Shown here: positions 23,513 through 56,178 of the stretch, in pieces
Numbering within the stretch: position 1 is the stretch's first letter
Layout of the letters: the number at the start of each line of letters is the position of its first letter
Assembly (NCBI GenBank): GCA_048885925.1
Contig: JBHLLG010000001.1
Span: 131,105 to 195,104, forward strand
Source: Candidatus Hermodarchaeota archaeon
Lineage (GTDB): Archaea; Asgardarchaeota; Lokiarchaeia; Sigyniarchaeales; SOKP01
Length of the DNA stretch: 64,000 nucleotides
Reading direction: 5' to 3'
The notes under the pieces: model-generated
The model's database searches: none
What the model saw: only the letters and a program-made list of their open reading frames with translations
What the model was told of the DNA's origin: nothing
Made by a program: the position numbers and the translations under genes

Positions 23513-23572
23513 AAAATTAACTCAATAATCTCATCAGTTTTACATCTTATTACTTTTTGTGCTCTTATAAAT

Positions 23573-23683
23573 AAATTTATTAAGAATAAAATGAAAAGTT
23601 TGATTAATAAACTAATAATTAAAATAAGGGCAAACTAAATAGATCCTATTTTAAGTGAATAAATTCACCTCTAGCGTTCTCAT
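23573..23683 (+). promoter_or_regulatory. Putative TATA-like box and conserved palindromic leader upstream of TPR-nitrilase copy 1
   Basis: AAATTTATTAAG at 23573; AGGGCAAACTAAATAGATCCTATTTTAA at 23627-23654 contains the inverted repeat AAATAG-ATC-CTATTT; near-identical copy upstream of copy 2. Confidence 0.6.
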
Positions 23684-26600
23684 ATGGCAGAATTAACTCA
23701 AGTAGAAGATTTATTGGAAAAGGCATTAACTGAAGAAAATGCTTATAACTGGAAACAAGCAGCGAAACTATATAAACAAATTGCAGAATTGTATTTAATT
23801 AGGGGAGCCAAGGAAAGAGCAGCTGAAAACTATATGAAATGTGGAATGTCGTATTTTGATGCTGTAAATGCATCAGAAAATGTTGGTGAATTAGAAGAAA
23901 ATACTAAATACTTACTCAAATCCCTGAAGGCCGGTGCTAAAATCAATAAGGAGATTGGAAATATGTCTGACGCGTTAGAATGTGATGGATTAGTATTTCT
24001 GACTCAAGCACTATATTTTATGGAGGCCAAGCAAGAAATCCTGAATTCAGCTAAACAATCTTTTGAGTTTCTTAATAAAGCCATCGAACTTTTTGATAAA
24101 GAAAAAACAAATAAAAATGATCTAGCGAGAAAATTATATAATTGTTCATTTGCTACGGTTTTCCTAGTTTATTGTAGTTTCGATAAAATAAATTTAGATG
24201 AAACCTTGCAAAAAGGTTTCGATTTCGCGTATGATGCTTGGAAAATATCAAAAGATGTTAAAGACTTGAAAATTCTCACTGATTCACTAGATTTGGAGAT
24301 CAATAATTTATGGAGTTTAGTTGCTTTCTTAAAAGATTTCCAGAAAGATGAAAGTTGGATTGAATATTTGAGAAATTTTCTTGTAAGGTGTGATGAAAGC
24401 TTAAAAATTATAGGAGAATGTAAAAATTCTCGCATACTTCGATCGATTTATTCAGCTATGGGTTTGGCTTATGTTAACCTTGCGCATTATTATATTGAGG
24501 AAGAAATAGAACAACGAAAATTATTTGATAAGGGTTTGGACTTTCTGGAACAAAGCATAGAATTTGCTCGAGAATCAAGAAATAATAATGCTTTAATTTA
24601 TCTCTTATATTGGATAAATTTCTTAGCCCTTGTAGCTGGTAAAATAAACTTTCTTCAAAAAAGAATTAGTAATGATATTGATGAGATCACCAAGATAGGA
24701 GTTATATTTGAAACTACAAATTTAGCTTCATACCCATTTGCATATTACTTACCTGCTTTTTATTACTCAAACATTGCTCAGTGGAGCATTTTTACTCCAA
24801 CCCAAAGAATTTCTTATGCTAAAAAAAGTATTGAGTATACTAAAAAAGCTTTAGGAATATCAGCAAGTACACTTGTTGATACTTGGATGTGTCAAGCGTT
24901 AGTCTGGTCATATTCTCAATTAATTAATCTAACAGCAATAAAAGAAGAGCGTAAAGACCTTATTCAAAAGATGCTTAAGTTTACGAATCAAGCTAAAAAT
25001 TTTGGAGAAAAATCTGAAGGTGGCTTAATTCGTGCCGCTGGTTATTCTTCCATATATAAGGCTTATAAAACACTAGCAGATATTGCTGAAAATAAAGAAG
25101 AAAAAATTAAAACTTTAATTATTGCCGTTAACGCGAATAAAAATTATATAAAACATGCTAGGGAATCTAGAACTGGTAATATATCAGCTAGATTGCGATT
25201 AGGACTTCTATATGAAGAATTAGGTATTTTATCATCAAATAACGATACAGTTCTCCAAGCGAGAGAGTTATTTGATAAATTAATTGATGAATGCATTGAT
25301 AGAAGATATTACTCGTATGCTGCTGCTGCCTGTGAATATTCTGCTCGGATTGAAGACAGATTAGGCAATTATCTTGTTTCAGCAGATTATTATGGAAGAG
25401 CTAAAAATGGATATTCGGATTCATTGAAAAATGCTGAATATAAGCTCCTTAAAAATAGAATTAATGAAAAAATAAATTATGTAAATGCTTGGAGTTTTAT
25501 TGAAAATGCAAAAGCATCCCATAAAAAAGAGAATCATCTTAAAGCTAAGGAAAACTATGAAAGAGCTATTGAAATTTTAAAGAATCTACCAAATTTTAAG
25601 TTTGAATCAAAATATTACTTAGCTTGGGCGGAACAGGAAGAAGCTGAAAGACTCAGCAAACTTGAGAAACACAAGGAAGCTACAGAACATTATGAAAAAA
25701 CCAAAACAGTTTTTGATGATTCTATAAAAGTCATGGAGGATGTGGCTAATAAGATTAAAGATAAATTCACATTAGAAAGGATAAAAAAACTTGAAAAAGT
25801 AGCACGATTACGAATTAAATACTGTTCAGCTAGATCAAATGTAGAAAAAGCGAGAATTCTAGGAAAACAAGGTGAATATTGTGCTGCTGCTGAATTGTTT
25901 GCTTCTGCTGCATCTGAATTTAGAGATGTTTGCAATTTATTTAAAATTGAACGAGAACGAGGAGAACTTGAGGCAGTTTATTATCTCTGTAGAGCATGGG
26001 AAAGCATGGAACTTGCTGAAAAATATTCTGACCCAGAAAGATTTGCAAAGGCAGCAACCCTATTCACTAAAGCAAGTGGACTTTTTAGTGATAGTAAATT
26101 AAAATTACTCGCATCTGGTAATTCCGCATTCTGTCAAGCATTGGAATTAGGATGTGAATTTGATGAAACTTTTGAATATAATTTAAAAGCTGAATTGTAT
26201 CCAAAAATAAGGTCAATTTTAAGAAAGGCTGCCTCCTCTTATGAAAAGGGGGGTTTTGAAAACGGAAGTAATTGGGCTTTAGCAACCGCGACTCATTTTG
26301 ATGCTACTTGGTCCTTGATTAAAGCGGATGAAGAATTAGAATTTGAAGAAAGGAAAAAACTGTTGGGAATTGGATCGGATTATTTGAAATCAGCAGCAGA
26401 ACTTTTTAGTAAAGCAGGTTATAATGATAAAGAAAGAGAGATATTAAAACGTTTAGACATGGTAGAGAAGGAAGAAAAAATTATTTTTTCGGCTTTAAAT
26501 TCAATTGAAAAACCAAAAATATCAGGAAGTACCGTTGGAATTATCGCTCCGGCATGTTCATTAGAAACTAGCCAATCCCCTAGATTAGGTGAAGTTACTC

Positions 26601-27523
26601 AATTTACTCTAGAAGAAAGAAGAGCCATTGTAGAGAGATCTGCTAAAAAAAAATATGAAATAATCTATAGAGATTTGTTTAAGGAATATCCAAGAGCTCA
26701 AAAAAGAGAATTTAAAGTTGGCATTGCCCAAATTGGCGTATCTAAATCAGGTAATATTATGGGAGAATTCTATAACATGACATCTTCCGGTCTATTGGGA
26801 CTCAGAAAGGATAAAGTTGAAAGTATCCGAAGTATTGTTAGAAATATGATTGAAAATGCGAATAAAGAAGGTATTAGCGTTTTAATTTTCCCAGAAATGT
26901 CAATTGACCTCAATTACGGAGAATTTTTAGAAGATATTTCATATTTTGCCAAATTATATGAAATGTATATAATTCCAGGCTCTTTTCACAACCAAGGAAC
27001 AAAACAAAATATTGCTATGGTTTTTGGACCAGATGGGATTCTTTGGGAACAAGAAAAACATATTCCTGCTATAATACATTTTAGAGGAAAAAGATTTAAG
27101 GAAAATATAGAAATTGAAGCCCTCCCTCGAAAAATATTTGTATGCAATACCGAATTTGGCCGAATAGCGATTGTTATTTGTCGTGATTTCCTTGATATGG
27201 ATTTGAGGGTAGAGTTAAAAAATTTTGAACCTCCTGTTGACATTATTTTGAATCCTGCCTTTACACCTGTTACTTCTGATTTTAAAGCAATACACTTCGA
27301 TGCTCGGAGATCTATCTATGCTTACTGTTTTTTTGCTAATATTGCTGAATTCGGTGAATCTTTAATATACACTCCAGAAAAGGATCGCACTGAAAGAATT
27401 CTTCAAGCAAAAGAAGAAGGTTTAATATATAAAGAAGTGGATCTATTTAAATTGCGTTCTGAACGGAAAAAATGGGAAAAAAAAGAAAATAATGAAGTCA
27501 AATTCATTCAAAGTACAAGATAG
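23684..27523 (+). CDS. Giant TPR/SNAP-like alpha-solenoid protein with C-terminal carbon-nitrogen hydrolase (nitrilase superfamily) domain, copy 1
   Basis: About 950 aa of helical repeats; then VGIAQIG, LIFPEM (Glu), IIPGS, QEKHIP (Lys), FGRIAIVICRDF (Cys), NPA, ANIA..GES. Confidence 0.88.
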   Translation: MAELTQVEDLLEKALTEENAYNWKQAAKLYKQIAELYLIRGAKERAAENYMKCGMSYFDAVNASENVGELEENTKYLLKSLKAGAKINKEIGNMSDALECDGLVFLTQALYFMEAKQEILNSAKQSFEFLNKAIELFDKEKTNKNDLARKLYNCSFATVFLVYCSFDKINLDETLQKGFDFAYDAWKISKDVKDLKILTDSLDLEINNLWSLVAFLKDFQKDESWIEYLRNFLVRCDESLKIIGECKNSRILRSIYSAMGLAYVNLAHYYIEEEIEQRKLFDKGLDFLEQSIEFARESRNNNALIYLLYWINFLALVAGKINFLQKRISNDIDEITKIGVIFETTNLASYPFAYYLPAFYYSNIAQWSIFTPTQRISYAKKSIEYTKKALGISASTLVDTWMCQALVWSYSQLINLTAIKEERKDLIQKMLKFTNQAKNFGEKSEGGLIRAAGYSSIYKAYKTLADIAENKEEKIKTLIIAVNANKNYIKHARESRTGNISARLRLGLLYEELGILSSNNDTVLQARELFDKLIDECIDRRYYSYAAAACEYSARIEDRLGNYLVSADYYGRAKNGYSDSLKNAEYKLLKNRINEKINYVNAWSFIENAKASHKKENHLKAKENYERAIEILKNLPNFKFESKYYLAWAEQEEAERLSKLEKHKEATEHYEKTKTVFDDSIKVMEDVANKIKDKFTLERIKKLEKVARLRIKYCSARSNVEKARILGKQGEYCAAAELFASAASEFRDVCNLFKIERERGELEAVYYLCRAWESMELAEKYSDPERFAKAATLFTKASGLFSDSKLKLLASGNSAFCQALELGCEFDETFEYNLKAELYPKIRSILRKAASSYEKGGFENGSNWALATATHFDATWSLIKADEELEFEERKKLLGIGSDYLKSAAELFSKAGYNDKEREILKRLDMVEKEEKIIFSALNSIEKPKISGSTVGIIAPACSLETSQSPRLGEVTQFTLEERRAIVERSAKKKYEIIYRDLFKEYPRAQKREFKVGIAQIGVSKSGNIMGEFYNMTSSGLLGLRKDKVESIRSIVRNMIENANKEGISVLIFPEMSIDLNYGEFLEDISYFAKLYEMYIIPGSFHNQGTKQNIAMVFGPDGILWEQEKHIPAIIHFRGKRFKENIEIEALPRKIFVCNTEFGRIAIVICRDFLDMDLRVELKNFEPPVDIILNPAFTPVTSDFKAIHFDARRSIYAYCFFANIAEFGESLIYTPEKDRTERILQAKEEGLIYKEVDLFKLRSERKKWEKKENNEVKFIQSTR

Positions 27524-27639
27524 TTAGAACTATCTCTAAAACTATGGAACTAACTTTGAATGAAAAATATTAAAGTAAAAGCAGAATAAAGAAATCTAAA
27601 TATCTTAAATAATTACCATCTTAATCTTGAATTATAATT

Positions 27640-27747
27640 AAATTTATTAAGTATAAAACGAAAGATTAATCAATATAAATTAGTATTCTATAGGGCAAAT
27701 TAAATAGATCCTATTTTAATTTACAAATTTAGTTTTTAATCTCTCAT
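27640..27747 (+). promoter_or_regulatory. Putative TATA-like box and conserved palindromic leader upstream of TPR-nitrilase copy 2
   Basis: AAATTTATTAAG at 27640; AGGGCAAATTAAATAGATCCTATTTTAA at 27692-27719, one mismatch to the copy 1 motif; both leaders end TCTCAT-ATG. Confidence 0.6.
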
Positions 27748-30700
27748 ATGACTGAACTAACCGAAGAAGAAAATAATTTATTGGAAAAGGCATTAGCAGA
27801 AGAAAAAATTTATAATTGGTTGGAAGCAGCCAAATTATACAAACAAGTTGCTAATAGTTATTTGAAAAAAAATCTTCTAGAAAAAGTTGCTGAAATTTAT
27901 AAGAAGCTTGGATATTCATATTCACGAGCAGCTTTCACTGTAAAAACAAATGAACAATTTGTACAATATATCAAAGAAACCATAAAAGCTTATACAGATG
28001 CATTGAATATTTTTGAACAAATTGGAAATAAAGCTATGAAATTTGAATGTGAAGCGGAAATTTTTCTTTTCAGATCATATATAACAGATTCTTTTTCAAC
28101 ACAAAAGAAGGACCTCATCAACTCATATGAGCTTTTCGTTAAATCAAGCATAGAATATTCTAAGGAAGATTACCAAGAACACATTGCCAGAGTTTTGAGT
28201 CACGGTGCCTATGCTTGTATAGCAAGTGGTTTTTCTATAATTGATCTTAAAGAATTTGATGATCATTATCAAAAATGTAAAGATATTGCCCTTAAGGCTC
28301 AAGAAATTTCGAAGAAAACTGAAAATGTTCAATCTCTTGCCTATTCGTTATGGGCAGAGTATTATTTGACGTTAATTCAAGTTTATATAAAACCATTTAG
28401 ATGGAATGAGGATTGGAGAGAAGTTTTCAAAAAATATCTATTAAAATGCGATGAAAGTTTAACTTTAATTGAAAAATATGATGATTTAAAAGCTTTAGCT
28501 ATGATTTGTATTACTTATGGCAATGTAAGTGGGTTTTTTTCGATTCATTTCATTGAGGACGAAAATGAGCAAAGAGAGTATATGGATAATGCATTGAAAC
28601 TACTAGAAAAATCTTCAAATCTTGCTAGAAAATTAAACGATATTGCTTTAATAAATGAGTCTATATATTGGTTGGTTATGTGGTCTATGCTTGGAGGTAG
28701 AGTTAAGTATCTCCAAAATAAACTTGCTACTAACCTTGAACGGTTTATAGAGATAGGAAATATATTTAAAGACACGTATACTATATGGAATTTCCAAGAA
28801 AATGTTTTATTAGGAGCTTATTATGCTAATATTGCCCAAAGGAGTTTCTTCACATCAGATCAGAGGAAATCATATGCCGAAAAAGCAATTGAATATGCAA
28901 AAATAAATTTGACGAATATGCCAGATTCACCTTTTATTTCAGATTCTCATTTAGCATTAACATGGGCATATTCACAATTAGTTATTCTCGGTAAAAAAAA
29001 AGAATTGCAGAAGATTAATGCCCAAAAAATGCTTCAATATGCAGAAAAACTTGGAAAAATTGCTGAGAAATATGAAGGCGGGTGGGTTCGAGCATATGGT
29101 TATTCATCTCTCTATAGAGCCTATAAAACTCTCGCGGATATTGCTGAGAGTGAAGAAAACAAAATTGAAATGTTATCACTTGCCATAGAAGCTTCCGAAA
29201 AGTATATGGAGCATTCAAATGAATCTCGAACAGGTATCATTACAGCTCAAGTACGCTTAGGACTTCTTTATGAAGACTTTGGCATTTTAACTAAAAATAA
29301 TGATATATTTATAAAAGCAAAAGATTTATTCCTCCAAGTAGCGAAAGAAAGCCAAAAAAGAGGGTATCAATCTTATACAGCCGCAAGTTACGAATACTTA
29401 GCAAGAATAGAAGATCGCTTAGGTAATCATACAGCTTCAGCAAATTATTATGAGATGGCACAAAATGCATATGGTGAATCATTAAAAAAAGTTGATTATA
29501 AACCATTAATAAAGAGAATTAATGAAAAATTGAATTATGCTAAAGCTTGGAACTTAATTGAAATTGCTAAAGTTAATCATAAAAGTGAAAATCATCAAAA
29601 AGCTAAGGAGAGCTATAATGATGCTTGTGAAATCCTAAAAAGTCTGCCAAGTTTCAATTATGAAGCAAATTATTATTCTGCTTGGTCATCTCAGGAAATT
29701 GCGGAACAACTAAGCAAACAAGAAAAACACGAAGATGCTATTAAGCAATATAATATAACTATAGATATGTTTGAAAATGCAATTGCAATCCTAGAAAAAC
29801 GGTTAAATAAATCTAAAGAAAAGATAGAACTTGAAAGAATCGACAAAATTATAAAAGTAGCCAAATTAAGGACATCATATTGTTCCGCTAGAATAGATGT
29901 TGAAAAGGCAAGAATCGTAGGAAAACAAGGTGAACATGTAACAGCTGCAGAATTATTTGCTTCAGCAGCATCCCAGTTTAGATATGTTTGCAACCTATTT
30001 AAAACTGAAAAAGAACGAGTAGAATTAGAGGCTGTATATTATTTATGTAGAGCTTGGGAAAGCATGGAACTTGCTGAAAAATATGAAGATCATGATAGGT
30101 TTTCAGAATCTGCTAATTTATTTATAAGAGCAAGTAATTTATTCACAGATAGTAAATTGAAATTATTAGCATCAGGTAATTCTTCTTTTTGCCAAGCTTT
30201 AGAACTTGGATGCGAATTTGATGAGACTTATGATTCTGAAGTAAAAGCTCAATTGTATTCTAAAATTAAAGCAATGTTAAGGACAGCAGCGTCTTCTTAT
30301 GAGAAAGGAGGTTTTAAGAATGGTGGTGATTGGGCTTTGGCTACATCTACTTATTTCGATGCAGTATGGCATTTAATAAGGGCGGATGATGAGTTAGAGA
30401 TTAGCAACAAAAAAAATCTTTTAGATATCGGAGCTAACTATTTAAGATCAGCAGCGGAGCTTTTTAGTAAAGCGGGATATAAAGATAAGGAAAAGGAAAT
30501 TTTAGCCCGTTTGGAAAGATTGAAACAAGAAGAAAAAATATTAGTTTCAGCTCTAAATACAATTAAAAAACCTGCGATATCTAGCAGTACAACGGGTATA
30601 ATTGCTCCTGCCTGTTCATTAGAAACTAGTCAATCGCCCCGGTTGGGTGAAGTATATCAGTTCACCGAAGAAGAAAGAAGAGTAATAGGAGAAAGAGTAG

Positions 30701-31584
30701 CTAAAAAGAAATATCAAATTATTTATAGAGACTTATTTAAAGAATACCCTAGAGCTCAAAAAAGAGAATTTAGAGTTGGCATAGCTCAAATTGGTATATC
30801 TAAAAGTGGAGATATCTTAAATGAGTTTTACGAGATGAAAACTTCAGGTTTATTAAGCCTCCGGGAAGATAAGCTTGGAATTCTAAGACCTAAAATTCAA
30901 AACATGATTGAAAATGCACATAAAGAGGGAGTTAATGTTTTACTTTTCCCAGAAATGATAATTGACCTTAATTACGGTGAGTTATTGGAAGATATTTCTG
31001 ATCTTGCCAAATTATATGAGATGTATATAATTCCAGGCTCGTTTCATGATCAAGAAACAAAAAGAAATATTACTAGAGTTCTTGGACCAGATGGTATTCT
31101 TTGGGAACAAGAAAAACATATTCCAGCAATAATAAGATATGGGAAAACAGAATTCAAGGAAGGTATAGATGTAGGAGATATTCCTCGAAATATTATTGTT
31201 TGCAATACAGAATTTGGGAGAATTGCAATTTCTATTTGTCGTGATTTTCTTGACATGGATTTAAGGGTAGAATTGAAAAATTTTGAACCTCCTGTTGATA
31301 TTATTTTAAATCCTGCCTTTACGCCTGTGACTGCTGATTTTAAAGCAATACACTTTGATGCTCGGAGATCTATTTATGCATACTCCTTTTTTGCTAATGT
31401 AGCTGATTTCGGCGATTCTTTAATATATACTCCTGAAAAAGATCGCACTGAAAGAATTATTCCAGCAAAAGAAGAAGGATTGATATATAAAGATATTGAT
31501 CTCTTCAAATTGCGTTCAGAACGTAAAAAATGGGAAAAAGAACAGAAAAAAGAAAAACAATTTATCCAAAGTACACGATCATAA
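27748..31584 (+). CDS. Giant TPR/SNAP-like solenoid-nitrilase fusion protein, copy 2
   Basis: Same architecture; LLFPEM / QEKHIP / ICRDF triad intact. Confidence 0.88.
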   Translation: MTELTEEENNLLEKALAEEKIYNWLEAAKLYKQVANSYLKKNLLEKVAEIYKKLGYSYSRAAFTVKTNEQFVQYIKETIKAYTDALNIFEQIGNKAMKFECEAEIFLFRSYITDSFSTQKKDLINSYELFVKSSIEYSKEDYQEHIARVLSHGAYACIASGFSIIDLKEFDDHYQKCKDIALKAQEISKKTENVQSLAYSLWAEYYLTLIQVYIKPFRWNEDWREVFKKYLLKCDESLTLIEKYDDLKALAMICITYGNVSGFFSIHFIEDENEQREYMDNALKLLEKSSNLARKLNDIALINESIYWLVMWSMLGGRVKYLQNKLATNLERFIEIGNIFKDTYTIWNFQENVLLGAYYANIAQRSFFTSDQRKSYAEKAIEYAKINLTNMPDSPFISDSHLALTWAYSQLVILGKKKELQKINAQKMLQYAEKLGKIAEKYEGGWVRAYGYSSLYRAYKTLADIAESEENKIEMLSLAIEASEKYMEHSNESRTGIITAQVRLGLLYEDFGILTKNNDIFIKAKDLFLQVAKESQKRGYQSYTAASYEYLARIEDRLGNHTASANYYEMAQNAYGESLKKVDYKPLIKRINEKLNYAKAWNLIEIAKVNHKSENHQKAKESYNDACEILKSLPSFNYEANYYSAWSSQEIAEQLSKQEKHEDAIKQYNITIDMFENAIAILEKRLNKSKEKIELERIDKIIKVAKLRTSYCSARIDVEKARIVGKQGEHVTAAELFASAASQFRYVCNLFKTEKERVELEAVYYLCRAWESMELAEKYEDHDRFSESANLFIRASNLFTDSKLKLLASGNSSFCQALELGCEFDETYDSEVKAQLYSKIKAMLRTAASSYEKGGFKNGGDWALATSTYFDAVWHLIRADDELEISNKKNLLDIGANYLRSAAELFSKAGYKDKEKEILARLERLKQEEKILVSALNTIKKPAISSSTTGIIAPACSLETSQSPRLGEVYQFTEEERRVIGERVAKKKYQIIYRDLFKEYPRAQKREFRVGIAQIGISKSGDILNEFYEMKTSGLLSLREDKLGILRPKIQNMIENAHKEGVNVLLFPEMIIDLNYGELLEDISDLAKLYEMYIIPGSFHDQETKRNITRVLGPDGILWEQEKHIPAIIRYGKTEFKEGIDVGDIPRNIIVCNTEFGRIAISICRDFLDMDLRVELKNFEPPVDIILNPAFTPVTADFKAIHFDARRSIYAYSFFANVADFGDSLIYTPEKDRTERIIPAKEEGLIYKDIDLFKLRSERKKWEKEQKKEKQFIQSTRS

Positions 31585-31717
31585 TTTTTACTTATTCTAA
31601 ATCTGTGATTATTTTATATAAAATATTTTAAACTTACACATCTAATATTAATTATTCTTAAAGATAAAAAAATGAAACCCAGAAAGCCAATATTTCTAAT
31701 ATATGATTAAAATATAA

Positions 31718-34700: not shown

Positions 34701-35569
34701 ACAGTTTAAAATATAAAGACTTGTTAACTCAATATCCTAAAATACAAAGAAATGAATGCAGAATTGGAGTTGCTCAAATTGGATTATCTGAATCAGGAAA
34801 CATTTTAAAAGAATTCTTTAAAATAAAGAAGTTTGGATTATTAGGAATTAAGGAGGATATAATTAATTCACTCAGATCAACTTATAAAGAAATGATTGAA
34901 AGAGCCAATTCTGATAGAATTAATATTCTCGTTTTTCCAGAAATGATGATAGATCTAAATTATACTGAAATTATTGAGGATTTAATGAATTATTCAAAAG
35001 TTTACAATATGTATATTATTCCAGGATCTTATCACGATGAAAAATCTAAGAAAAATATTAGTGTAGTTATTGGTCCAGAAGGATTTCTTTGGGAACAAGA
35101 AAAACATATCCCTGCAACAATTCATATTGAAGGTAATAAAGTTAAAGAAGCAATTGATACAAGTTCTTATCCTAGAAATACAACTATATGTAATACTGAG
35201 TTTGGTAGAATTGCAATAGTTATCTGTCGGGACTTTCTTGATATGGATTTAAGAGTGGAATTGAAGAATTTTGAACCACCAGTGGATATTGTTATTAATC
35301 CTGCATTTACACCAGTTACAGCAGATTTCAAAGCAGCTCATTTTGATGCACGTAGATCCATCTATGCTTACTGTTTCTTTGCTAATGTTGCTGAATTTGG
35401 TGATTCGCTAATCTATACTCCCGAAAAAGACCGCACTGAAAGAAACATCCCAGCGAAGGAAGAAGGCTTAATATATAAAGATATTAATCTTTTCAAATTA
35501 CGTTCAGAGCGTAAAAAATGGGAAAAAGAGCAAAAGAAAGAATTGCAATTCATACAAAGTACCAGATAA
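31718..35569 (+). CDS. Giant TPR/SNAP-like solenoid-nitrilase fusion protein, copy 3
   Basis: Same architecture; LVFPEM / QEKHIP / ICRDF; start may be the ATG at 31724. Confidence 0.88.
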   Translation: MRMVRITQVELLNRAEAEEKKYNLKEAIRLYKQVLENFIDKDDLIKVAQINEKIGNIYVLATLTADTEKELTEMIDDAVEAYDKAIKIYTEMNNKVKVLECMAGQFKVKSDKGISPEYSRKQLLDSFEKYMELSEIYNKENDNKNLLRILSQTSLTLALLLQCCYDPIDFEDLFQKGDDIVERGLNLSYELGYKQYIGNFFFVGNFIIGIKTWVTFSRIDKLFWRNSEHEKLLNKFLDRSNEGLKFIEESDDKFNKALFYHFIGSINCQFAARFIHDEKEQKDLADKGIKYCEEALDLMRELNFKPFLIHYIFWLDYFLGILGRYQYLQKRILGDITEIQEKGKAYQNIFSFWGFLTNFLSAVSYQFFTQRSYLKTDLRRTYAKKGIKEIEDGLKKLNFGPFFSLSYQILTNLYSQLVHLTPKREKRESFIDSMFKSASEAEKAGKMYKAGMSRAAGYISLYRAHKTLSDVLTNKEEKIKNLSIAIDAITNNIEFSVESYRDFIADRMHLGLLYEDLAILTKQKEPLFQARELFLHLIKDTNQKGYYYHTAAAYEYLARIEDRLGNHLTSAQQYEMASNAHLKSLEKVQFKPLKDRIKEKSEYDKAWKLIENAKVNHKKEDHLKAKEEYDMACEILKTLSKYRYEASYYSSWAYLEVSEDASKKEEHQVAIDKYQDTKNCFEKSINILEDTLTQSSNKIEIERITKLKKVANVRINYCLARINLEKARILQKQSDHLSAAENFALAASQFRDICTIFKIERERKELEAIYHLCRAWEGMELAENYQEPERFIEASKLFLKASNLFIDSKLKLLASGNSSVCLALENGCKFDESTDMGKKADYYKKVKMMLRKASSSYEKGGFIVGADWALGTTIYFDGLWHLIKADEELELNIRKKQLEVGSKYLKSAAEIFGKSGYKERQEEIYEKLNRIEREELILYSALNTISNPVISRSTVGIVAPACPIESSLSPKISEINQLTLEATELSETQEKVKKYSLKYKDLLTQYPKIQRNECRIGVAQIGLSESGNILKEFFKIKKFGLLGIKEDIINSLRSTYKEMIERANSDRINILVFPEMMIDLNYTEIIEDLMNYSKVYNMYIIPGSYHDEKSKKNISVVIGPEGFLWEQEKHIPATIHIEGNKVKEAIDTSSYPRNTTICNTEFGRIAIVICRDFLDMDLRVELKNFEPPVDIVINPAFTPVTADFKAAHFDARRSIYAYCFFANVAEFGDSLIYTPEKDRTERNIPAKEEGLIYKDINLFKLRSERKKWEKEQKKELQFIQSTR

Positions 35570-35655
35570 GGTATTTTTTCAAGATAAATTTTAATAACAC
35601 AAAAAAATAATTAATGAATTAGTGAAATCAATAGCATTTCAAAAAAATCTTTAGC

Positions 35656-38600
35656 ATGATTGTCAAGAGTAACCAAGAAGAATCTTTAATTAAAGAAGCG
35701 AAAATTGAAGAAAAGAATTATAATTGGGAAAAGGCAGCAGCTTTGTATGAACAAGTGGCTAAAATATATTTAGATAGAGAAAAATTAAAAGATGCCGCAA
35801 ATATTTATATTAAACTAGGGGATATATGCATGCGAGCTATCTATGCATCAGAAATTAAAGAAGACTATTTAAATTGGAGTAAACAATCTTTTAAAGCATT
35901 TCAAAAGGCGGAGAGTCTTTTTATCCAGATTAATGATAAACTTCTGAGTGATGAATGTAAAGCTAGAGCACTTTCAGTAACAGGCTTTGTTATTACTTCA
36001 GTTGAAGAGGCGAGAAAAAATATAAAAAAATCAGTTGATATTCTTTTAGAACTTATTGAAAAATATTCAAAAGTAAATGATACTAAAAATTGGATAAGAT
36101 TGATAACCCTGATCATTGGGTCAATCAATTTATATGTATTTATAACTTCGGATCCTTCTGAATTGGAGTATTATAGCCATTTGGCTCGTACTTTAATAGA
36201 AAAGGCTTGGACTCGTCTAAAAGAAATTGATACAATCGAAATTAGAAGTAGCCTATTGTTTGGTGAGAATATATTAATGCTTAATATTAATAGATGGACG
36301 GAACTTACTTATGGAGATAAAAATCAAGAAAAAGTTAACAAAAAATTTTTAAAGAGATGTGAAGAAACACTAAATTTAGTGCAAGCTAGTGATGATGAGA
36401 TTAATCATAGCTATCTTGGAGAAATTTATGGTATAACGGGTTTCGTATATTGTATATTTGGGAGTTTACTTGTTGAAGAGAAAAAGGAACGAGTAAAGTT
36501 AGCTGAAAAAGGATTTGAGTTATTGGAAAAATCTGTTGCTTTTTTTAAAAATTCAAGAAATATTCTTGGAGCTATATCATATACATATAGTACAGATTAT
36601 CATGCTGGTCTTTTTGGTAGATTTGAATACCTACAGAAGAGAATTCTAAATGATATGCGAGAAGTACAGAAATTAGATAAAATCTTCGATAATTTATATG
36701 CTGGGCTTTATAGTTTTATGGATTTCATACCTATTGATTATTATAACCAATTTGCTAGCAGAAGTTTTTTAAGGGCGGATACAAGGAAGTCTTATGCTAA
36801 ATTAGGAATTAAATATGCTAATAAATCATTGCAAAGACTTGCGTTTGGTCCTTATATTATATTTATTTATCAGTATTTAACTCATTTTTATTCACAACTA
36901 ACTCTTCTTGCTTTAGAAGATGAACCTCAGCAGGACTATATTCAAAAAATGTTGTATTATGCTAATAAGGCTGAAAATCTCTCAAAAGGATATAAAGGAG
37001 GAAATGTAAGATCAGCTGGTTTTACTTCGCTTTACAGAGCATATAAGACTCTTGCTGATATTTCTAAAGATAAGGATGAAAAAGTTAAAAATTTAGAACT
37101 TGCAGTAGAAGCTGCTAAAAAAAATATTAAGTATTCCATTGAATCTTATAGAATTTTTTTAGCAATTCAAATACGTTTGGCTTTAATTTATGAGGAATTA
37201 GGCATCCTAACTACCGAAGAAAAACCCCTAATACAAGCAAGAGATTTATTTCTACGTATAGTTATTGATTCTTCAGAAAAAGGTTATTATTATTATACAG
37301 CTGCTTGTTATGAATATATTGCTCGTTTAGAAGATCGCTTAGGAAATCACATAGTCTCTGCTGAATATTATCAAAAAGCACAGGAAGCACATGAAGACTC
37401 ATTAACTTCAATTAAATATAAGCCATTGAAAGAAAGAACTAATGAAAAGATAAAGTATACCAAAGCTTGGAATTTTATTGAAAAGGCCAAAGCATATCAT
37501 AAAAGGGAAAATCATATAAAGGCTAAAGAAAATTATGAAGAAGCAGCTGAGATCTTAAAAACCTTACCCAATTTTAATTATGAAGCAGCTTATTATGGCG
37601 CTTGGATAATTTTAGAAGAAGCTGAGAATCTTAGTAAACAGGAAAAATATGAAGATGCTATAAAGAACTATAAAAAAACAAAAGATCTTTTTGATAATGC
37701 CATTTTTACAATTAGATTTATAAGGAAAAATGTTAGAAGGTCAAAAGAATTAAAAAAACTTGAGAAAGTAGCGAAAGTAAGGATGAATCATTGTTCTGCT
37801 AGAATAAATCTTGATGAGGCAAGGATTTTAGGGAAAAAGGGGGAACATATTGCTGCTGCCGAAAAATTTGGTAATGCTGCGACTCAATTTAGAGACATTT
37901 GTATATTGTATAAAATTAAAAGAGAACGAGCAGAAATAGAAGCAATATATCATCTCTGTAAAGCTTGGGAAAGTATGGAATTAGCTGAAAATTATGAGGA
38001 TCCAGAAAAGTTTACAGAAGCAGCAAATTTATTTTCAAATGCTAGCGATTATTTTACACAAAGTAAATTAAAGTTCCTAGCTGAAGGAAATTCTAATTTT
38101 TGTTTAGCTCTTGAAGAAGGATGCAAATTTGATCAATCTCATGATATAGAAGTTAAAACAAGCTTGTATCCAAAAATTAAGTCAATTCTCAGAAATGCAG
38201 CAAATTTATATGAAAAGGGCGGTTTTAAAAATGGGGCGGATTGGGCACTTGCGACATCAACTTATTTTGACGCAGCATGGTATTTGATTCAAGCCGACAA
38301 TGAATTAAATGTAAATAAAAAACGGGAATTTTTAAATTATGGATCAAATTATTTAAAGTCATCAGCAGAACTATTTCATAAAGCGGGATATAAAGATAAG
38401 GAAAAAGAAGTATTAGAAAGATTAGATAGAGTAATTAAGGAAGAAAAAATACTCTTCTCTGCCTTAAGCACAATTTATAAACCTTCTGTTTCAAGAAGTA
38501 TAGAAGGCATTATTACACCTTCATGTCCGATAGAAACAAGCCAATCACCACGGATTGGTGAAATTCAACAATATTCTGAAGAAGTAAGTACTTTTTTAGA

Positions 38601-39492
38601 AAGAGATAGTAAAACAAATAAATACGAAATAGAATATAGGGATTTGTTAAAAAATTATTCAAAGTCACCAAGGAATCAGTGTAGAGTTGGTATTGCTCAG
38701 ATTGGTATTTCCAATTCTGGTGATATAATGAATGAGTTTTATGAGGAAAAACCTAAAGGTCTTTTAACGCTCAAAGAAGAAAAAGTTAGTGATATTGAGT
38801 CAAAAGTGAAGCAAATGATTGATAAAGCAAATGAAGAAAGTGTTAACATTTTACTATTTCCAGAAATGGCAGTAGATCTCAAATATAAGCAATTTCTAGA
38901 AGATATTTTAAATCTCGCTAAAAAATATGGAATGTATATTATTCCTGGATCATATCACAATATTGAAACAAAAAGTAATATTAGCTTAGTTTTTGGCCCT
39001 GAAGGAATACTCTGGCAACAAGAAAAGTATATTCCTGCCATCATAAGCCTAGGGAGCGGCAGATTTAAAGAGGGAATAGAAAAATCTGTTTTACCTCATA
39101 AAACAATAGTATGTAATACAGAATATGGGAGAATAGCTATTGCAATTTGCCGGGATTTTCTTGACATGGATTTAAGGGTAGAATTAAAGAATTTTGAACC
39201 ACCGATTGATATTATATTAAATCCGGCTTTTACACCAGTTACAGCTGATTTTAAAGCGGTTCATTTTGATGCGCGTAGATCTATTTATGCTTATACTTTT
39301 TTTGCTAATATTGCTGATTATGGCAACTCCCTTATTTATACACCAGAAAAGGAGCGTGTTGAGAGAAATGTTCCTTCAAAACAGGAAGATTTAATCTATA
39401 AAGATGTAGATCTTTTTAGGCTTCGGTCAGAACGTAAAAAATGGGAAGAAAAACAGAAAAAAGAAAAATCTTTTATTCAAAGTACAAGATAA
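35656..39492 (+). CDS. Giant TPR/SNAP-like solenoid-nitrilase fusion protein, copy 4
   Basis: Same architecture; LLFPEM / QEKYIP / ICRDF. Confidence 0.88.
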   Translation: MIVKSNQEESLIKEAKIEEKNYNWEKAAALYEQVAKIYLDREKLKDAANIYIKLGDICMRAIYASEIKEDYLNWSKQSFKAFQKAESLFIQINDKLLSDECKARALSVTGFVITSVEEARKNIKKSVDILLELIEKYSKVNDTKNWIRLITLIIGSINLYVFITSDPSELEYYSHLARTLIEKAWTRLKEIDTIEIRSSLLFGENILMLNINRWTELTYGDKNQEKVNKKFLKRCEETLNLVQASDDEINHSYLGEIYGITGFVYCIFGSLLVEEKKERVKLAEKGFELLEKSVAFFKNSRNILGAISYTYSTDYHAGLFGRFEYLQKRILNDMREVQKLDKIFDNLYAGLYSFMDFIPIDYYNQFASRSFLRADTRKSYAKLGIKYANKSLQRLAFGPYIIFIYQYLTHFYSQLTLLALEDEPQQDYIQKMLYYANKAENLSKGYKGGNVRSAGFTSLYRAYKTLADISKDKDEKVKNLELAVEAAKKNIKYSIESYRIFLAIQIRLALIYEELGILTTEEKPLIQARDLFLRIVIDSSEKGYYYYTAACYEYIARLEDRLGNHIVSAEYYQKAQEAHEDSLTSIKYKPLKERTNEKIKYTKAWNFIEKAKAYHKRENHIKAKENYEEAAEILKTLPNFNYEAAYYGAWIILEEAENLSKQEKYEDAIKNYKKTKDLFDNAIFTIRFIRKNVRRSKELKKLEKVAKVRMNHCSARINLDEARILGKKGEHIAAAEKFGNAATQFRDICILYKIKRERAEIEAIYHLCKAWESMELAENYEDPEKFTEAANLFSNASDYFTQSKLKFLAEGNSNFCLALEEGCKFDQSHDIEVKTSLYPKIKSILRNAANLYEKGGFKNGADWALATSTYFDAAWYLIQADNELNVNKKREFLNYGSNYLKSSAELFHKAGYKDKEKEVLERLDRVIKEEKILFSALSTIYKPSVSRSIEGIITPSCPIETSQSPRIGEIQQYSEEVSTFLERDSKTNKYEIEYRDLLKNYSKSPRNQCRVGIAQIGISNSGDIMNEFYEEKPKGLLTLKEEKVSDIESKVKQMIDKANEESVNILLFPEMAVDLKYKQFLEDILNLAKKYGMYIIPGSYHNIETKSNISLVFGPEGILWQQEKYIPAIISLGSGRFKEGIEKSVLPHKTIVCNTEYGRIAIAICRDFLDMDLRVELKNFEPPIDIILNPAFTPVTADFKAVHFDARRSIYAYTFFANIADYGNSLIYTPEKERVERNVPSKQEDLIYKDVDLFRLRSERKKWEEKQKKEKSFIQSTR

Positions 39493-39599
39493 ATTTAAAA
39501 AAAATAAATTATAAAAATAATTCATTTAATAGTAGAGGAATAGATTAGTAAACTTAGGTAAAAAATATTCATATAGAACTCATTCTGAAATGGTAAAAA

Positions 39600-42500
39600 A
39601 TGAAAGGAGAGAGAGAGGAGACTTTATTAGAAATCGCTCGAAATGAAGAGAAAAATTATAATTTAGAAAAAGCTGCTAAATTATATGAAGAAGCAGCAGA
39701 GAGCTTTTTAAATAGGAATTTGATGGAGAAAGCTGCGAAGGCTTTCAGTCAACTTGGAGGGGTTTATTCAAAGGCTCTAGAAACAGCAATATCATCAGAA
39801 ACTTTTTTTAGTACCTGTAAAAATGGTATTAAAGCGTTTGAAATGGCAAAAAAACTTTATAAAAGAATTGAATCGAAACCTAACATCTTGGAATGTGAAG
39901 CAAATACATTCTACATTAATGGATTGATTTCAGGCTCAATAGCAGAGGTAAAAGAAAATTTTAACAAATCATACGAGATATTTTTAGAATCTAGTAAGTT
40001 TTTTGAAGAGGAGGGAAACAAAGAAGCTACGGCAAGAACTTTAAGTAATGTATTAGAGATATTACTTTTCAACGTATTCAATTGTGAACATTCATTAGAG
40101 GGTAAAGAAATCCTCGAGAAATCTTCTAAATTAGAAGAAAAATCTTGGAATTTTTCAAAGGAAATTAAGGCTATTGAATATCTTGGTCTGGGATTTCATC
40201 TTGGAACAACCACTAATCTCTGGCGAATTCTTAGTACAAATTTTCAAAGGGATGATCGACTCTACAAATATATCAAAAATATTTTCTTGAAATTTGAGGA
40301 GCTTTCAGAGCTAGCTAGGAATTGGGATGACCCTAGAGTCCTTGGGATGGTATATTACGCAGGTGGAAATGCGTATTGTGCATATGCTACTCATTATGCT
40401 AAAGATGAAAAAGAACAGGGAGTTTATATTGATAAAGGTATAGACTTACTTGAACAATCATTAATTTTCAATGATCGCGCAAAGAACTCATTAATGAAAA
40501 TAGTCACGATTTTTTTTATAAATTGGTGGGCATATTTCAATCGGAGGCTTAAATATGTCCAGAAAAGAATTTTTAAAGATGTTAATGAAATCTTAAAATT
40601 AGGAAAAGCATATGAGGACTCTCCTACATTTATATATTTCTTAGCGAATTTACTGCCTGCTTTTTATTATGCAAATATTTCTCAAATGACAATGTTTACC
40701 ACACGCCAACGAATATCTTATGCTAAAAAGGGGGTTGAATACGCTAAAAAAGCGTTAAAATTTTTCGAAGTCCTGCCTATCTCTATTTGGTCACTTTTAA
40801 TGCTAATTTATTCATATTCACAACTAATTGTTCTCACATCATCAAGAGAAGAACAAGAAGAATATTCTAAGGAGATATTAAATTGTGCTAAAAAAGCAAA
40901 AATCATCGGTGAAAAGTTTGAAGGAGGATTGGCTCGAGGATTTAGTTATAATTCCCTTTACAGAGCTTATAAAACTCTTGCTGATGTTACCGACGACAAG
41001 GAAAGCAAACTCAAAATGTTATTAACAGCCGCAAAAGCTTCTAAAGATTACATGATGCATACTTGGGAATCAACGACCGGAAATCTCACAATGCAATTGC
41101 GGTTAGGTCTACTTTATGAAGAGATTAGTATTATTGCGAATAATTCTGAATACTTGGAGCAATCAAAAGAATTGTTTATCCAAGTTGTTGAGGAAAGCAT
41201 CAAGCAAGGTTATTTTTATTATGCAGCTGCAGCGAATGAATATATTGCCCGAATAGAGGATCGATTAGGTAACCACTCAGCTTCAGCAGATTATTACGAA
41301 AAAACATTTGAAACTCATAAAGATTCATTAAAGTATGTAATGTACAAACCACTTATATTAAGAATTAATGAAAAAATCAATTATGCCTATGCTTGGAGTC
41401 TTATTGAAAGAAGTAAAACGTTTCATAAAAGAGAAAATCACCTTCAAGCTAAAAAATTTTACGAAAAGGCTTACGACATTCTCAACAATTTATCAAGATA
41501 CAAATACGAGGCTGATTATTATTCTGCATGGATATTGCTAGAGGAAGCAGAACACTTTAGTAAGCAAGAGATGCATGAAATAGCAACAGAAAAATATGAG
41601 CTGACAATAAAAGCCTTTGAAAATGCTACGGAATCTTTAAATAAAGCTTTAAAGGAATCAAAAAATAAGAGAAAAAATGAACGAATTGGTAAACTTATAA
41701 AATTAGCTGAAGTAAGAATAAAGCATTGTTTGGCTAGAATCAATGTTGAAAAAGCGAGAATATTAAGTAAACAAGGTGAATATAATGCTGCTGCGGAACA
41801 TTTTGCCTTAGCAGCAGCAGAGTTCAGGGAGGTATGCAACAGTTTTACAGTCGAAAAAGAACGGGAGGAATTAGAGGCGGGTTATTATCTGTGCAGAGCG
41901 TGGGAAAGTATGGAATTTGCAGAATATTATAAAGATTCAAACAGGTTCGCAGAAGCATCAGCCTTATTCATAAAAGCTAAAAATCTTTTCTCTTCAAATA
42001 TAATGAAATCATTAGCATCTGGAAATTCTGCTTTTTGTCAGGCATTAGAAATTGGTTGTAAGTTTGATGAGCTAACTGCAGCAAAAAATAAAGCTGAGTT
42101 ATATCCTAAAATCAAAGTTATGCTTAGAAATGCAGCTTCTTCATATAGAAAAGGTGGATTTGAAAATGGAGCTGATTGGGCTCTAGCAACCTCCTCTTAT
42201 TTTGATGCAGCATGGTACTTAATCAGAGCTGATGAAGAATTAAGACTTGAAGAGAAAAAGAAACTTCTTGATATTGGATCTGAATTTCTTTCATCAGCTT
42301 CAAATTTATTTGGAAAAGCAGGTTATAAAGAGAAGGAACAAGAGGTTTTTAAACAGCTGGAAATGGTTAAAAAAGAAGAAAGTATAATAATTTCAGCTTT
42401 AAATGCGATAAAAAAACCATCCGTTTCTGGAAGTACTATTGGAATTACCGCTCCAGCCTGTCCTTTAGAAACAAGTTTATCAACGAATTTAAGTGAAATT

Positions 42501-42812
42501 CGTGAATTGTCTGATGCCAATCTAGATGAAGATGATCTTGGAAAAAAGCCCTCATCTCATGTTAAGTTGAAGATAAAGGAAAGTGGTATAAAAACTGGTT
42601 TATCGGTTGAAGAACAAAGAGAACTAGAGAAATTGGAATATGAACTTAAAATAGAAGAACAAAAATTTATCTGTGTTGTCCATAAAGGACAAATTGTAGG
42701 GACCGTATATATTTGCCCAAATTGTAGAACTTGTTATTGTTTAACGTGCGCTTACTCTTTAAAAGCAAATGGAGAAAAATGCTGGACATGTAATAATGAA
42801 ATAAAACCATAA
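39600..42812 (+). CDS. Fifth paralog: same TPR/SNAP-like solenoid with a C-terminal RING-like zinc finger instead of the nitrilase
   Basis: Shares ARIEDRLGNH, YLCRAWESME, GADWALATSSYFDA and GITAPACPLETS; ends CVVH-x10-CPNC-x4-CLTC-x10-CWTC. Confidence 0.86.
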   Translation: MKGEREETLLEIARNEEKNYNLEKAAKLYEEAAESFLNRNLMEKAAKAFSQLGGVYSKALETAISSETFFSTCKNGIKAFEMAKKLYKRIESKPNILECEANTFYINGLISGSIAEVKENFNKSYEIFLESSKFFEEEGNKEATARTLSNVLEILLFNVFNCEHSLEGKEILEKSSKLEEKSWNFSKEIKAIEYLGLGFHLGTTTNLWRILSTNFQRDDRLYKYIKNIFLKFEELSELARNWDDPRVLGMVYYAGGNAYCAYATHYAKDEKEQGVYIDKGIDLLEQSLIFNDRAKNSLMKIVTIFFINWWAYFNRRLKYVQKRIFKDVNEILKLGKAYEDSPTFIYFLANLLPAFYYANISQMTMFTTRQRISYAKKGVEYAKKALKFFEVLPISIWSLLMLIYSYSQLIVLTSSREEQEEYSKEILNCAKKAKIIGEKFEGGLARGFSYNSLYRAYKTLADVTDDKESKLKMLLTAAKASKDYMMHTWESTTGNLTMQLRLGLLYEEISIIANNSEYLEQSKELFIQVVEESIKQGYFYYAAAANEYIARIEDRLGNHSASADYYEKTFETHKDSLKYVMYKPLILRINEKINYAYAWSLIERSKTFHKRENHLQAKKFYEKAYDILNNLSRYKYEADYYSAWILLEEAEHFSKQEMHEIATEKYELTIKAFENATESLNKALKESKNKRKNERIGKLIKLAEVRIKHCLARINVEKARILSKQGEYNAAAEHFALAAAEFREVCNSFTVEKEREELEAGYYLCRAWESMEFAEYYKDSNRFAEASALFIKAKNLFSSNIMKSLASGNSAFCQALEIGCKFDELTAAKNKAELYPKIKVMLRNAASSYRKGGFENGADWALATSSYFDAAWYLIRADEELRLEEKKKLLDIGSEFLSSASNLFGKAGYKEKEQEVFKQLEMVKKEESIIISALNAIKKPSVSGSTIGITAPACPLETSLSTNLSEIRELSDANLDEDDLGKKPSSHVKLKIKESGIKTGLSVEEQRELEKLEYELKIEEQKFICVVHKGQIVGTVYICPNCRTCYCLTCAYSLKANGEKCWTCNNEIKP

Positions 42813-42845
42813 ATTTGTGATTATATAATTTAACTATTTTATTTG

Positions 42846-45280: not shown

Positions 45281-45340
45281 AAATAAATTGAAGATTTTTT
45301 GTAAATAAAAGATATTAAAAAAATTTAACCTTGATATTAG

Positions 45341-47602: not shown

Positions 47603-47638
47603 AATAGAATAAAAATTGAAATATTTAAGGTAAATAAA

Positions 47639-50260: not shown

Positions 50261-50285
50261 TATCTTCATTTTGTAAACTAAGCAG

Positions 50286-53528: not shown

Positions 53529-53589
53529 GATAAAGTTTGTTTCGTAAATTGTATTTTAGTTTTACATATTTAAAACTTATAGTTATTAT

Positions 53590-54351: not shown

Positions 54352-54456
54352 AGATTATTCCTTAATACCAATAATTAAAGTAAATAATAAAAGATATAAT
54401 AATTCTTATAATTATTTTATAACAATACTTATTTTCATTCCAAGTTTTTAATTGTT

Positions 54457-56166: not shown

Positions 56167-56178
56167 AATATATAAATT

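Follow-up and report, generated by a model that had tools for sequence, protein, structure and literature searches.

Defence systems of the DRT1 type combine a reverse transcriptase (RT), alpha-helical repeats and a nitrilase, and the class to which DRT1 belongs bears either a nitrilase or a phosphohydrolase (PMC13275509, in the portions drawn on here). According to the same portions of that paper, the DRT1 nitrilase requires assembly into a tetramer and has a conserved C-terminal lid by which the neighbouring active site is made complete (PMC13275509). In DSR2, according to the account that we use, a SIR2 NADase is joined to a long sensor of helical repeats, which recognises the phage tail tube protein. 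In eukaryotes, CHIP and similar ligases join a TPR substrate-binding part to a U-box or RING finger on which a conjugating enzyme (E2) docks. Here we describe an array of five tandem genes for giant helical-repeat proteins with different C-terminal ends, located in a 64,000-nucleotide stretch (the window) of contig JBHLLG010000001.1 of a Candidatus Hermodarchaeota archaeon. This organism is a member of the Asgard archaea, the closest known relatives of eukaryotes, whose sensing of invaders and of damaged proteins is little understood. The best explanation of the array is that it constitutes a repertoire of single-chain receptor-effector proteins within a large archaeal family, in which each array protein is modelled as one TPR-like superhelix of about 950 residues followed by an exchangeable C-terminal domain.

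The array occupies positions 23684 to 42812 on the + strand of the window. An earlier examination of these letters that made no use of database searches (the sequence-only reading) had reported five same-direction paralogs of 1070 to 1283 aa, and the open reading frame listing reproduces them exactly (genes 1 to 5, proteins P0001 to P0005; Table 1), with intergenic spacers of 224, 133, 86 and 107 nt in the order of gene 1 to gene 5. Pairwise identity among the paralogs is 40-57%. The division of each protein into a divergent N-terminal half, a conserved core and a conserved linker is likewise borne out, both by identities in windows of 50 columns (47% for residues 1-47, 21-36% for residues 48-440, 42-66% for the core at residues 440-950 and 43-87% for the nitrilase part) and by the consensus. 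The core consensus holds RLGLLYE, ARIEDRLGNH, YxLCRAWExMExAE, LASGNSxxCxALExGCxFD and GADWALATxxYFDAxWxLIxAD, and the linker consensus ..GIIAPACxxETSxSP.. is common to all five paralogs. Cys residues that are invariant include C714, C750, C769, C817, C824 and C958. None of the NCBIfam models matches the array proteins.

The monomer modelling that the sequence-only reading had suggested as a check yields a TPR-like superhelix that leads into an alpha/beta domain. The model was computed with AlphaFold2 for residues 80-1279 of P0001 from a multiple sequence alignment of 150 rows and has a predicted local distance difference test score (pLDDT) of 87.5 and a predicted template-modelling (TM) score of 0.75; it was used in place of a single-sequence AlphaFold model of gene 5, which was discarded at a pLDDT of 49.4. 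Unbroken helical hairpins extend up to approximately residue 928, with about 40 helices in residues 80-928. They are followed by a fairly confident non-helical stretch that contains the conserved linker (pLDDT 68-89) and then by the alpha/beta domain, which is of lower confidence, with mixed strands and helices past approximately residue 990 and a pLDDT of 38-93 per block. A Foldseek search of the PDB returns the long TPR superhelices of Ctr9, Ski3, IFT-A, separase, LGN and APC subunits with a probability of 1.00 and a best E of 3.5e-9. Because the full-length matches have TM scores of merely 0.13-0.25, in a search dominated by the TPR part, we regard the modelled body as a generic long TPR-like superhelix without a specific known relative.

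Sequence profiles give a fainter view of the same region. A search of the PDB with the core profile returns nothing meaningful (best E 0.26), and only weak self-matches with hidden Markov models (HMMs) bear on a possible duplication of the core as the N-terminal half. Pfam TPR_12 is just short of its cut-off (29.8 vs 30.1 bits), and SNAP (PF14938) gives P0005 18.2 bits vs a cut-off of 25, which is passed only by the distant relative P0126 (27.9 bits). With these matches below or near their cut-offs, the repeat nature of the body rests mainly on the structure model. Of the earlier TPR/SNAP-like designation, the TPR superhelix is thus retained by way of the model; the likeness to SNAP is taken as a generic TPR-like signal, since P0005 is below the cut-off. 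The weak MIT/VPS4-like matches of residues 8-76 (PDB profile search, E 0.035-0.07) were read in the same manner.

As the sequence-only reading had stated, four of the proteins end in a nitrilase domain and one in a RING-like finger. In genes 1-4, residues ~1050-1259 match Pfam CN_hydrolase (PF00795) with scores that equal or exceed the curated cut-off of 23.2 bits, and the end of gene 5 is a Cys/His finger. The suggested resemblance to the nitrilases of RT-associated (DRT) systems is also upheld. The PADLOC model RTasNitrilase (PDLC03804) matches P0001 with an E of 1.9e-11 and P0003 with an E of 1.3e-11, in an alignment that spans profile positions 161-372 of 397, and its score for P0001 (41.6 bits) is higher than that of the general Pfam model (28.3 bits). 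E1071, K1125 and C1166, which we take to be the nitrilase catalytic Glu-Lys-Cys, lie in the contexts FPE, EKH and CRD and are kept in at least 97% of 110 nitrilase tails, together with about 100 other positions that include the extreme C-terminus FIQST. C1166 aligns with the Cys of ..GICYD in Nit2 (chain 2w1v) and the Glu of FPE with FPE of 7elf, with the Lys one column off. In PDB profile searches the best matches of the nitrilase part are beta-ureidopropionase (E 4.1e-6), Nit2 and pantetheinase. Judged from its sequence, the nitrilase of genes 1-4 appears to be intact and of the DRT-associated type. Used alone as a query it retrieves only fragments of the same Asgard family, with no free-standing or RT-linked relatives at that sensitivity, and an Atlas search with it gives only unnamed bacterial clusters.

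A core HMM search across archaea, also suggested by the sequence-only reading, establishes that copy number is variable and the C-terminal domains exchangeable in a family of considerable size. With the P0001 core as query, 439 proteins were obtained at E<=1e-3 among 8000 scored candidates. Of the 120 matches listed, those with an organism name are almost without exception Asgard, apart from one partial Bathyarchaeota sequence and one 'marine sediment metagenome'. The core profile searched against 1.84 billion representatives gives 454 clusters (50% identity) at E<=1e-3 and 293 at E<=1e-30. The second tier of the family is Bathyarchaeial: the best 80 matches of a genome scan represent 79 distinct loci whose titles name Bathyarchaeota or Bathyarchaeia in almost every case, and a genome often carries several of them. 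The family is therefore not limited to Asgard archaea and has a large branch in Bathyarchaeia. Within the phylum its distribution is patchy, as a scan with four candidates scored per genome found it in 52 of 300 genomes and 3 of 30 families (39 of 67, 6 of 76 and 6 of 21 genomes in these families and 0 of 135 in the 27 others). Databases label the members simply as 'carbon-nitrogen hydrolase family protein' or as 'tetratricopeptide repeat protein'.

The single amidohydrolase output that had been proposed for these proteins is too narrow. Tails of 124 close homologs comprise 110 nitrilases, 7 metallophosphoesterases, 2 fingers, 2 TIR domains, 1 other and 2 truncated ends, and nitrilase, phosphoesterase and TIR are the dominant Asgard outputs. 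When the close homologs were clustered together with 150 representatives (252 tails of at least 60 aa), 119 tails were nitrilases and 90 were a beta-rich domain with or without a putative extension resembling a winged helix-turn-helix (wHTH), a label that comes from our reading of the sequences and from one source name. The remainder are 13 KaiC-like ATPases (PF06745 in P0173), 7 metallophosphoesterases plus 1 partial, 8 TIR_2 domains (6 in the group of P0126, with P0150 and P0121 apart), 6 members of a looser companion of the TIR cluster, of which the scanned member P0136 has no TIR match, 5 fingers, and 3 tails of 152-159 aa without a family label. This amounts to seven tail kinds if the 152-159 aa tail is counted, five of which are backed by a Pfam match.

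Exchange of these ends is also visible in a FastTree phylogeny of 127 rows, for which support is SH-like only and several long branches are flagged. The finger of gene 5 is nested within a nitrilase clade and the TIR-ended P0046 within a phosphoesterase clade; in a separate part of the tree, another finger protein and a nitrilase protein are sisters. The C-terminal domain is thus exchangeable across the family. Each array gene groups with proteins of other genomes and not with its array neighbours. For example, the closest relatives of gene 2, both outside this genome, are P0037 (87%) and G121_c, and gene 4 has an ortholog in another genus, G121_b (77%), at the same chromosomal site. Gene 3 is the most divergent copy and has a long branch.

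Evolutionary rates differ along the proteins. Among orthologs the ratio of nonsynonymous to synonymous rates (dN/dS) is 0.27-0.38 in the N-terminal half, 0.13-0.26 in the core and 0.08-0.13 in the tail. The N-terminal half outpaces the remainder of the protein by a factor of two to three. Synonymous sites among the five paralogs are saturated, with a synonymous rate (dS) above 1 nearly everywhere; a partial exception is residues 1179-1229 of genes 1 and 2 (dS 0.39). Recent gene conversion between the tandem copies was ruled out because dS exceeds 1 in almost all comparisons. As a separate observation, the first 47 residues (window 23684-23830 and equivalents) combine a paralog identity far above that of the next 400 residues with the highest dN/dS among orthologs, 0.46-0.94 in four of five comparisons and 0.23 in the fifth (win2-G121c).

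The number of copies varies at one chromosomal site. The flanks are syntenic, with a gene for an S-adenosylmethionine (SAM) methyltransferase (22412-23512) on one side and a UbiA gene (44540-45280) on the other. Between them lie one copy in G275, G177 and G204, two in G171 and G065, three in G121 and five in this window, and G141 has three tandem copies beside a methyltransferase homolog at what is probably the same site. Genome-wide counts in which every candidate was scored give 1, 2, 3, 3 and 7 matches for five congeners vs 8 here, the latter being six full-length proteins (the sixth is located away from the array), a short form and a core-only form. G275, a genome that is 100% complete, holds a single copy in all, and the set of G121 consists of proteins related to genes 2 and 4 together with a third type. 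The sequence-only reading had asked whether copy number and N-termini are invariant across strains; both vary between related genomes.

Metagenome contigs aligned at 90% likeness point in the same direction. One contig (run X8) joins 23540 to 27632 without gene 1, with sides of 141 and 154 nt and a low depth of gene 1 in that run, and another (run X3) joins 39492 to 42856 without gene 5, with a shorter side of 52 nt; both joints may stem from close relatives instead of the same strain. Further joints (31544 to 39472, 31493 to 39472, 32682 to 40560, 30992 to 35006 and others) were not used because they fall in conserved nitrilase 3' ends with a shorter side of less than 30 letters and are possible repeat artefacts. 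Most likely the array is a cassette store with content that differs between strains, which forms part of the reading that we favor.

That reading, to which we give a probability of about 0.42, is that the C-terminal enzyme is activated when a target induces assembly, as part of a conflict or immune response akin to abortive infection. A sensor-effector architecture is supported and an immune role is plausible. In the proposed mechanism the variable half would bind a target that differs by paralog, most likely a protein or peptide. Binding would alter the conformation or oligomeric state by way of the conserved half, and C-terminal domains would thereby be brought together and turned on. Assembly is expected to act as the switch because nitrilase and TIR domains act only as oligomers. 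The nitrilase might then hydrolyse an essential small molecule at an amide or amine group (a substrate of the NAD or nucleotide type has been proposed for DRT1), and the RING-like member would instead recruit an E2. We place this reading ahead of its competitors because the nitrilase and phosphoesterase outputs match those of the class 3 defence reverse transcriptases and because DSR2 provides a precedent.

Several observations weigh against an immune role. The neighbours of the array encode an electron transfer flavoprotein, acyl-CoA dehydrogenase, methyltransferases, TauE, UbiA and radical SAM proteins, and the array sits at a stable syntenic site with no evident mobile element. The 105 neighbours of 14 non-syntenic Asgard loci, counted without a matched control set, are mostly metabolic or housekeeping genes, and the seven PADLOC families found among them at E<=1e-10 all look generic (mad2/3/8, pVip, AriA and an oxidoreductase). 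None of 28 pattern matches on IMG/VR viral contigs was a family relative. No region compared among orthologs has a dN/dS above 1, and the five paralogs are of great age and evolve under purifying selection. Additionally, the RING-like end of gene 5 appears from modelling to point to protein-directed action, which departs from the single enzymatic output first envisaged; together with a short form in a ubiquitin-like operon it favors a protein-directed and possibly regulatory role. Finally, the Bathyarchaeial tails, mostly beta-rich with or without the putative wHTH or else with KaiC-like links, look like signal transduction and not like killing. Given the housekeeping neighbours, the viral contigs and the age of the paralogs, an anti-virus role such as the sequence-only reading had implied is not shown.

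The competitor that survives best, although we consider it rather unlikely, is that the solenoids are substrate adaptors of a ubiquitin-like modification or quality-control pathway in which the C-terminal domain modifies the protein that is held. The array would then supply adaptors for different substrates, with the RING-like end serving ubiquitin-like conjugation, the nitrilase deamidation or other amide cleavage, the metallophosphoesterase dephosphorylation and the KaiC-like ATPase phospho-signalling. Evidence for such a role comes from the gene 5 finger, which has the pattern C-x2-H-x11-C-x2-C-x4-C-x2-C-x11-C-x2-C with its eight ligands kept in all five relatives that have such an end. It aligns at all ligand positions with the RING-like domain of P0281 (BLASTP E 6e-11), a membrane protein encoded in a ubiquitin-like operon elsewhere in the same genome (contig C41). 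Both assignments are tempered by the Pfam RING models, which match P0281 below their cut-off (20.8 vs 27.4 bits) and the gene 5 finger not at all at E<=0.1, with the U-box models giving no match either. In a complex model the finger is placed on helix 1 and a loop of the E2 of the C41 operon with a score of 0.73 vs 0.00 for the best of three controls; the runs share at least 96% of contacts and the partner pLDDT is at least 83. Of 80 solved complexes 58 attain the mark that this score passes, as against 2 among 110 mismatched pairs, a calibration that is rough because of custom alignments and a riding zinc, and the modelled docking may merely reflect likeness to solved RING-E2 complexes.

The C41 operon also encodes the short form of the family (P0280; orthologs of ~870 aa). 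Its N-terminal region is P-loop GTPase-like (GEKGVGKTT, with weak Arf, Roc and RsgA matches) and precedes the most conserved part of the core and the same nitrilase. The family is thus, by sequence, not strictly free of nucleoside triphosphatases (NTPases), and the earlier description as an NTPase-less family holds for the five array genes but not for this sister form. In five of six genomes examined the short form has a Ras-family GTPase gene on one side and JAB, ThiF/E1 and UQ_con/E2 genes plus an 86-aa open reading frame on the other, with RING-like membrane proteins nearby. The order of the C41 cluster is kept in G008, G171, G071 and G150 and not in G177, and no ATG, GTG or TTG occurs within the first 96 codons of the open frame of the short form in this genome (G000). 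A core-only protein on contig C71 adjoins a P0281 paralog (E 4e-20), with a gene for a wHTH protein on its other flank, and core-only forms of ~343 aa were found in other genomes as well.

An adaptor role accounts better than an immune role for the RING-like end, the link to the operon and the housekeeping surroundings, and the old paralogs under purifying selection are in keeping with it. However, TIR ends fit it poorly, the nitrilase scores best with the DRT-associated model and has PDB best matches that act on small molecules, and there is no ubiquitin-like gene beside the array. Moreover, the genome has three E2-like genes, and that of the C41 operon diverges most (40 vs 91 bits), so the operon could itself be specialised or of a conflict type. 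A more far-reaching version, which we hold to be a long shot, would make the family the substrate-receptor layer of an archaeal precursor to eukaryotic degron-type pathways, in which paralogs deamidate proteins (nitrilase) or pass them to an E2 (RING-like), with a GTPase-switched version within the ubiquitin-like operon. In eukaryotes a nitrilase-fold N-terminal amidase feeds the N-degron pathway, which provides the comparison for this version.

It is improbable that the proteins are one-component signal-transduction sensors in which the solenoid senses a metabolite or state and regulates an attached enzyme or DNA-binding output, with the nitrilase as a regulated metabolic amidase and no part in conflict or ubiquitin-like chemistry. 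The 90 beta-rich tails of the Bathyarchaeial branch speak for it, and one source names a Bathyarchaeial protein with such a tail 'MarR family transcriptional regulator'; Pfam scans of the Bathyarchaeial tails of P0165 and P0166 gave no match, and 'Ig-like/CARDB-like' and 'wHTH' are our reading of the sequences. KaiC-like ATPases are fused to the solenoid in the 13 representatives counted above, and a single-domain KaiC-like ATPase of ~252 aa (PF06745, E 1.6e-62) adjoins the solenoid gene in 9 of the 79 Bathyarchaeial loci (L013, L023, L031 and others). Such ATPases have been proposed as archaeal signalling hubs (as cited in the part of PMC13700489 used here). The metabolic neighbour genes fit this explanation too. 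However, one to eight copies within one genus and the presence or absence of cassettes at one site are unusual for metabolic regulators, and TIR and DRT-type nitrilase ends are not expected. The loci examined hold no conserved metabolic partner gene, and a superhelix of ~950 residues seems large for the sensing of a small molecule. Bathyarchaeial family genes are mostly solitary, and in the 79 loci no conserved partner was found beyond the KaiC-like ATPase and a large surface-type protein (SBP_bac_5 plus cohesin plus dockerin/CARDB) that is encoded 3' of the solenoid gene in eight of them.

Least credible is that the five proteins assemble into a single hetero-oligomeric machine and that the array is an operon for a fixed complex, since same-direction genes with short spacers, ancient conserved paralogs and the oligomerisation of nitrilase domains are countered by the one, two, three or five copies at the same site, the lone copy of G275, the contigs without gene 1 or gene 5 and the different gene sets of other genomes such as G121.

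Other genes near the array are described here for completeness. An AbrB-type gene lies tail-to-tail with gene 5 (Table 1). In G204 (L096) and G213 (L091) a homolog (71-74% identity) is the immediate neighbour of a solenoid gene, which in G213 encodes a 1071-aa finger form; the other syntenic loci have no AbrB-type gene, and it is possible that this gene is a companion of the finger-ended form. Downstream, at 46499-52631 on the + strand, is a triad of a MoxR-type AAA ATPase (367 aa), a von Willebrand factor A protein (873 aa) and a 781-aa protein without a family match. The triad is missing from all syntenic loci examined (G275, G177, G204, G121, G171 and G065) and is therefore an insertion specific to this genome; PADLOC gives its ATPase only weak IetA/TRIP13-type matches. 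Five paralogous alpha/beta-hydrolase genes of 253-280 aa follow at 52686-57015, four on the + strand and one on the - strand, with copy number and order that vary among syntenic loci. In G275, G177 and G121 (L080/L081/L083) UbiA and radical SAM are separated by two CCG/Fe-S (heterodisulfide-reductase-like) genes, of 391 and 456 aa, which are missing from this position in the present genome (window 44540-46384). Scans of the 64-kb window for tRNA genes and Rfam families were empty.

Table 1. Location of the array genes, their parts and related features; positions refer to the window unless a contig or locus of the same genome (G000) is named.
Feature	Location	Strand	Residues	Description
Gene 1 (P0001)	23684-27523	+		1279 aa; solenoid + nitrilase; CN_hydrolase 28.3 bits
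Gene 1 N-terminal half, fast-evolving	23684-25003	+	1-440	
Gene 1 conserved core	25004-26533	+	441-950	
Gene 1 linker	26534-26608	+	951-975	
Gene 1 nitrilase part	26609-27520	+	976-1279	
Gene 1 predicted catalytic Glu	26894-26896	+	E1071	
Gene 1 predicted catalytic Lys	27056-27058	+	K1125	
Gene 1 predicted catalytic Cys	27179-27181	+	C1166	
Gene 2 (P0002)	27748-31584	+		1278 aa; solenoid + nitrilase; CN_hydrolase 23.2 bits, equal to cut-off
Gene 3 (P0003)	31718-35569	+		1283 aa, TTG start; solenoid + nitrilase; CN_hydrolase 26.1 bits
Gene 4 (P0004)	35656-39492	+		1278 aa; solenoid + nitrilase; CN_hydrolase 24.6 bits
Gene 5 (P0005)	39600-42812	+		1070 aa; solenoid + conserved linker + RING-like Cys/His finger; no nitrilase
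Gene 5 finger	42657-42809	+	~1020-1070	
AbrB-type neighbour gene	42846-43736	-		296 aa; N-terminal SpoVT/AbrB (MazE-like) domain; PF04014 25.9 bits
Short form (P0280)	C41:18197-20857			GTPase-like + core + nitrilase
Ubiquitin-like cluster	G000:C41 (locus L104 2856-11390)			P0281 RING-like membrane protein, DUF998, Ras-family GTPase, P0280, JAB, ThiF/E1, UQ_con/E2, 86-aa open reading frame
Core-only protein	G000:C71 (locus L105 5177-6190)	-		338 aa; most conserved core part only, HMM positions 231-436

The view that the architecture is uncharacterised is sustained by the literature checked. No description of it was found in the main texts of work on Asgard nitrilase/TPR proteins, Asgard defence and nitrilase conflict effectors, and a text search of the available parts of Asgard defence surveys and of an Asgard ubiquitin/ESCRT preprint, main texts only, did not find the family. 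PADLOC-DB 2.0 gives no whole-protein match to a described system: only the nitrilase domain is matched, P0005, P0126 and P0173 have no match, and the matches of P0023 are weak (PDC-S10, E 9.1e-5; Cas11f, E 0.0018). If the array is immune, it would represent an NTPase-free archaeal receptor class with TIR, nitrilase and phosphoesterase outputs and would offer a second, independent context for finding the substrate of defence nitrilases. Should a connection with the ubiquitin-like operon hold instead, the family would exemplify early repeat-protein substrate adaptors that were coupled to RING/E2 chemistry before eukaryotes.

Compared with known systems, the array proteins share with DRT1 and the class 3 UG-Abi systems a C-terminal nitrilase of the same subtype that is preceded by helical repeats. 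As in the DRT1 class, the end of the family alternates between a nitrilase and a phosphohydrolase-type domain, and its conserved extreme C-terminus recalls the DRT1 lid (both features of DRT1 as given in the cited portions of PMC13275509). They differ in that Pfam, NCBIfam and PADLOC find no RT domain in the array proteins, the helical part of ~950 residues is the main body, the hosts are archaeal, and the family has further TIR, RING-like and KaiC-like ends and no known defence phenotype. DSR2 is the best functional analogy for the proposed mechanism, as the account of it used here describes an NTPase-free single chain in which a large alpha-solenoid sensor is joined to an enzymatic effector and activated by a foreign protein. 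However, the DSR2 effector is an N-terminal SIR2 domain and DSR2 is bacterial, and no sequence relation was seen, the nitrilase model being the sole PADLOC match of note in the array proteins. STAND/NLR receptors with TPR sensors (Avs, MalT-like) resemble the family in their variable repeat sensor, swappable effectors including TIR, multiple copies and a proposed activation by oligomerisation. Unlike them, P0001-P0005 have no NTPase match (a weak BrxC_BrxD match of 15.9 bits is below its cut-off), and the P-loop GTPase-like domain of the short form is not a STAND module by any Pfam match above cut-off. Gene 5 is like CHIP in having a TPR-type part followed by a small finger that is modelled on an E2, but its solenoid is far longer, its finger is unseen by the Pfam RING and U-box models, and its role as a ligase is putative. 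Proteins that join a repeat sensor to an effector are already known; what is new here is an NTPase-free archaeal solenoid family with this range of outputs and a link to a ubiquitin-like operon.

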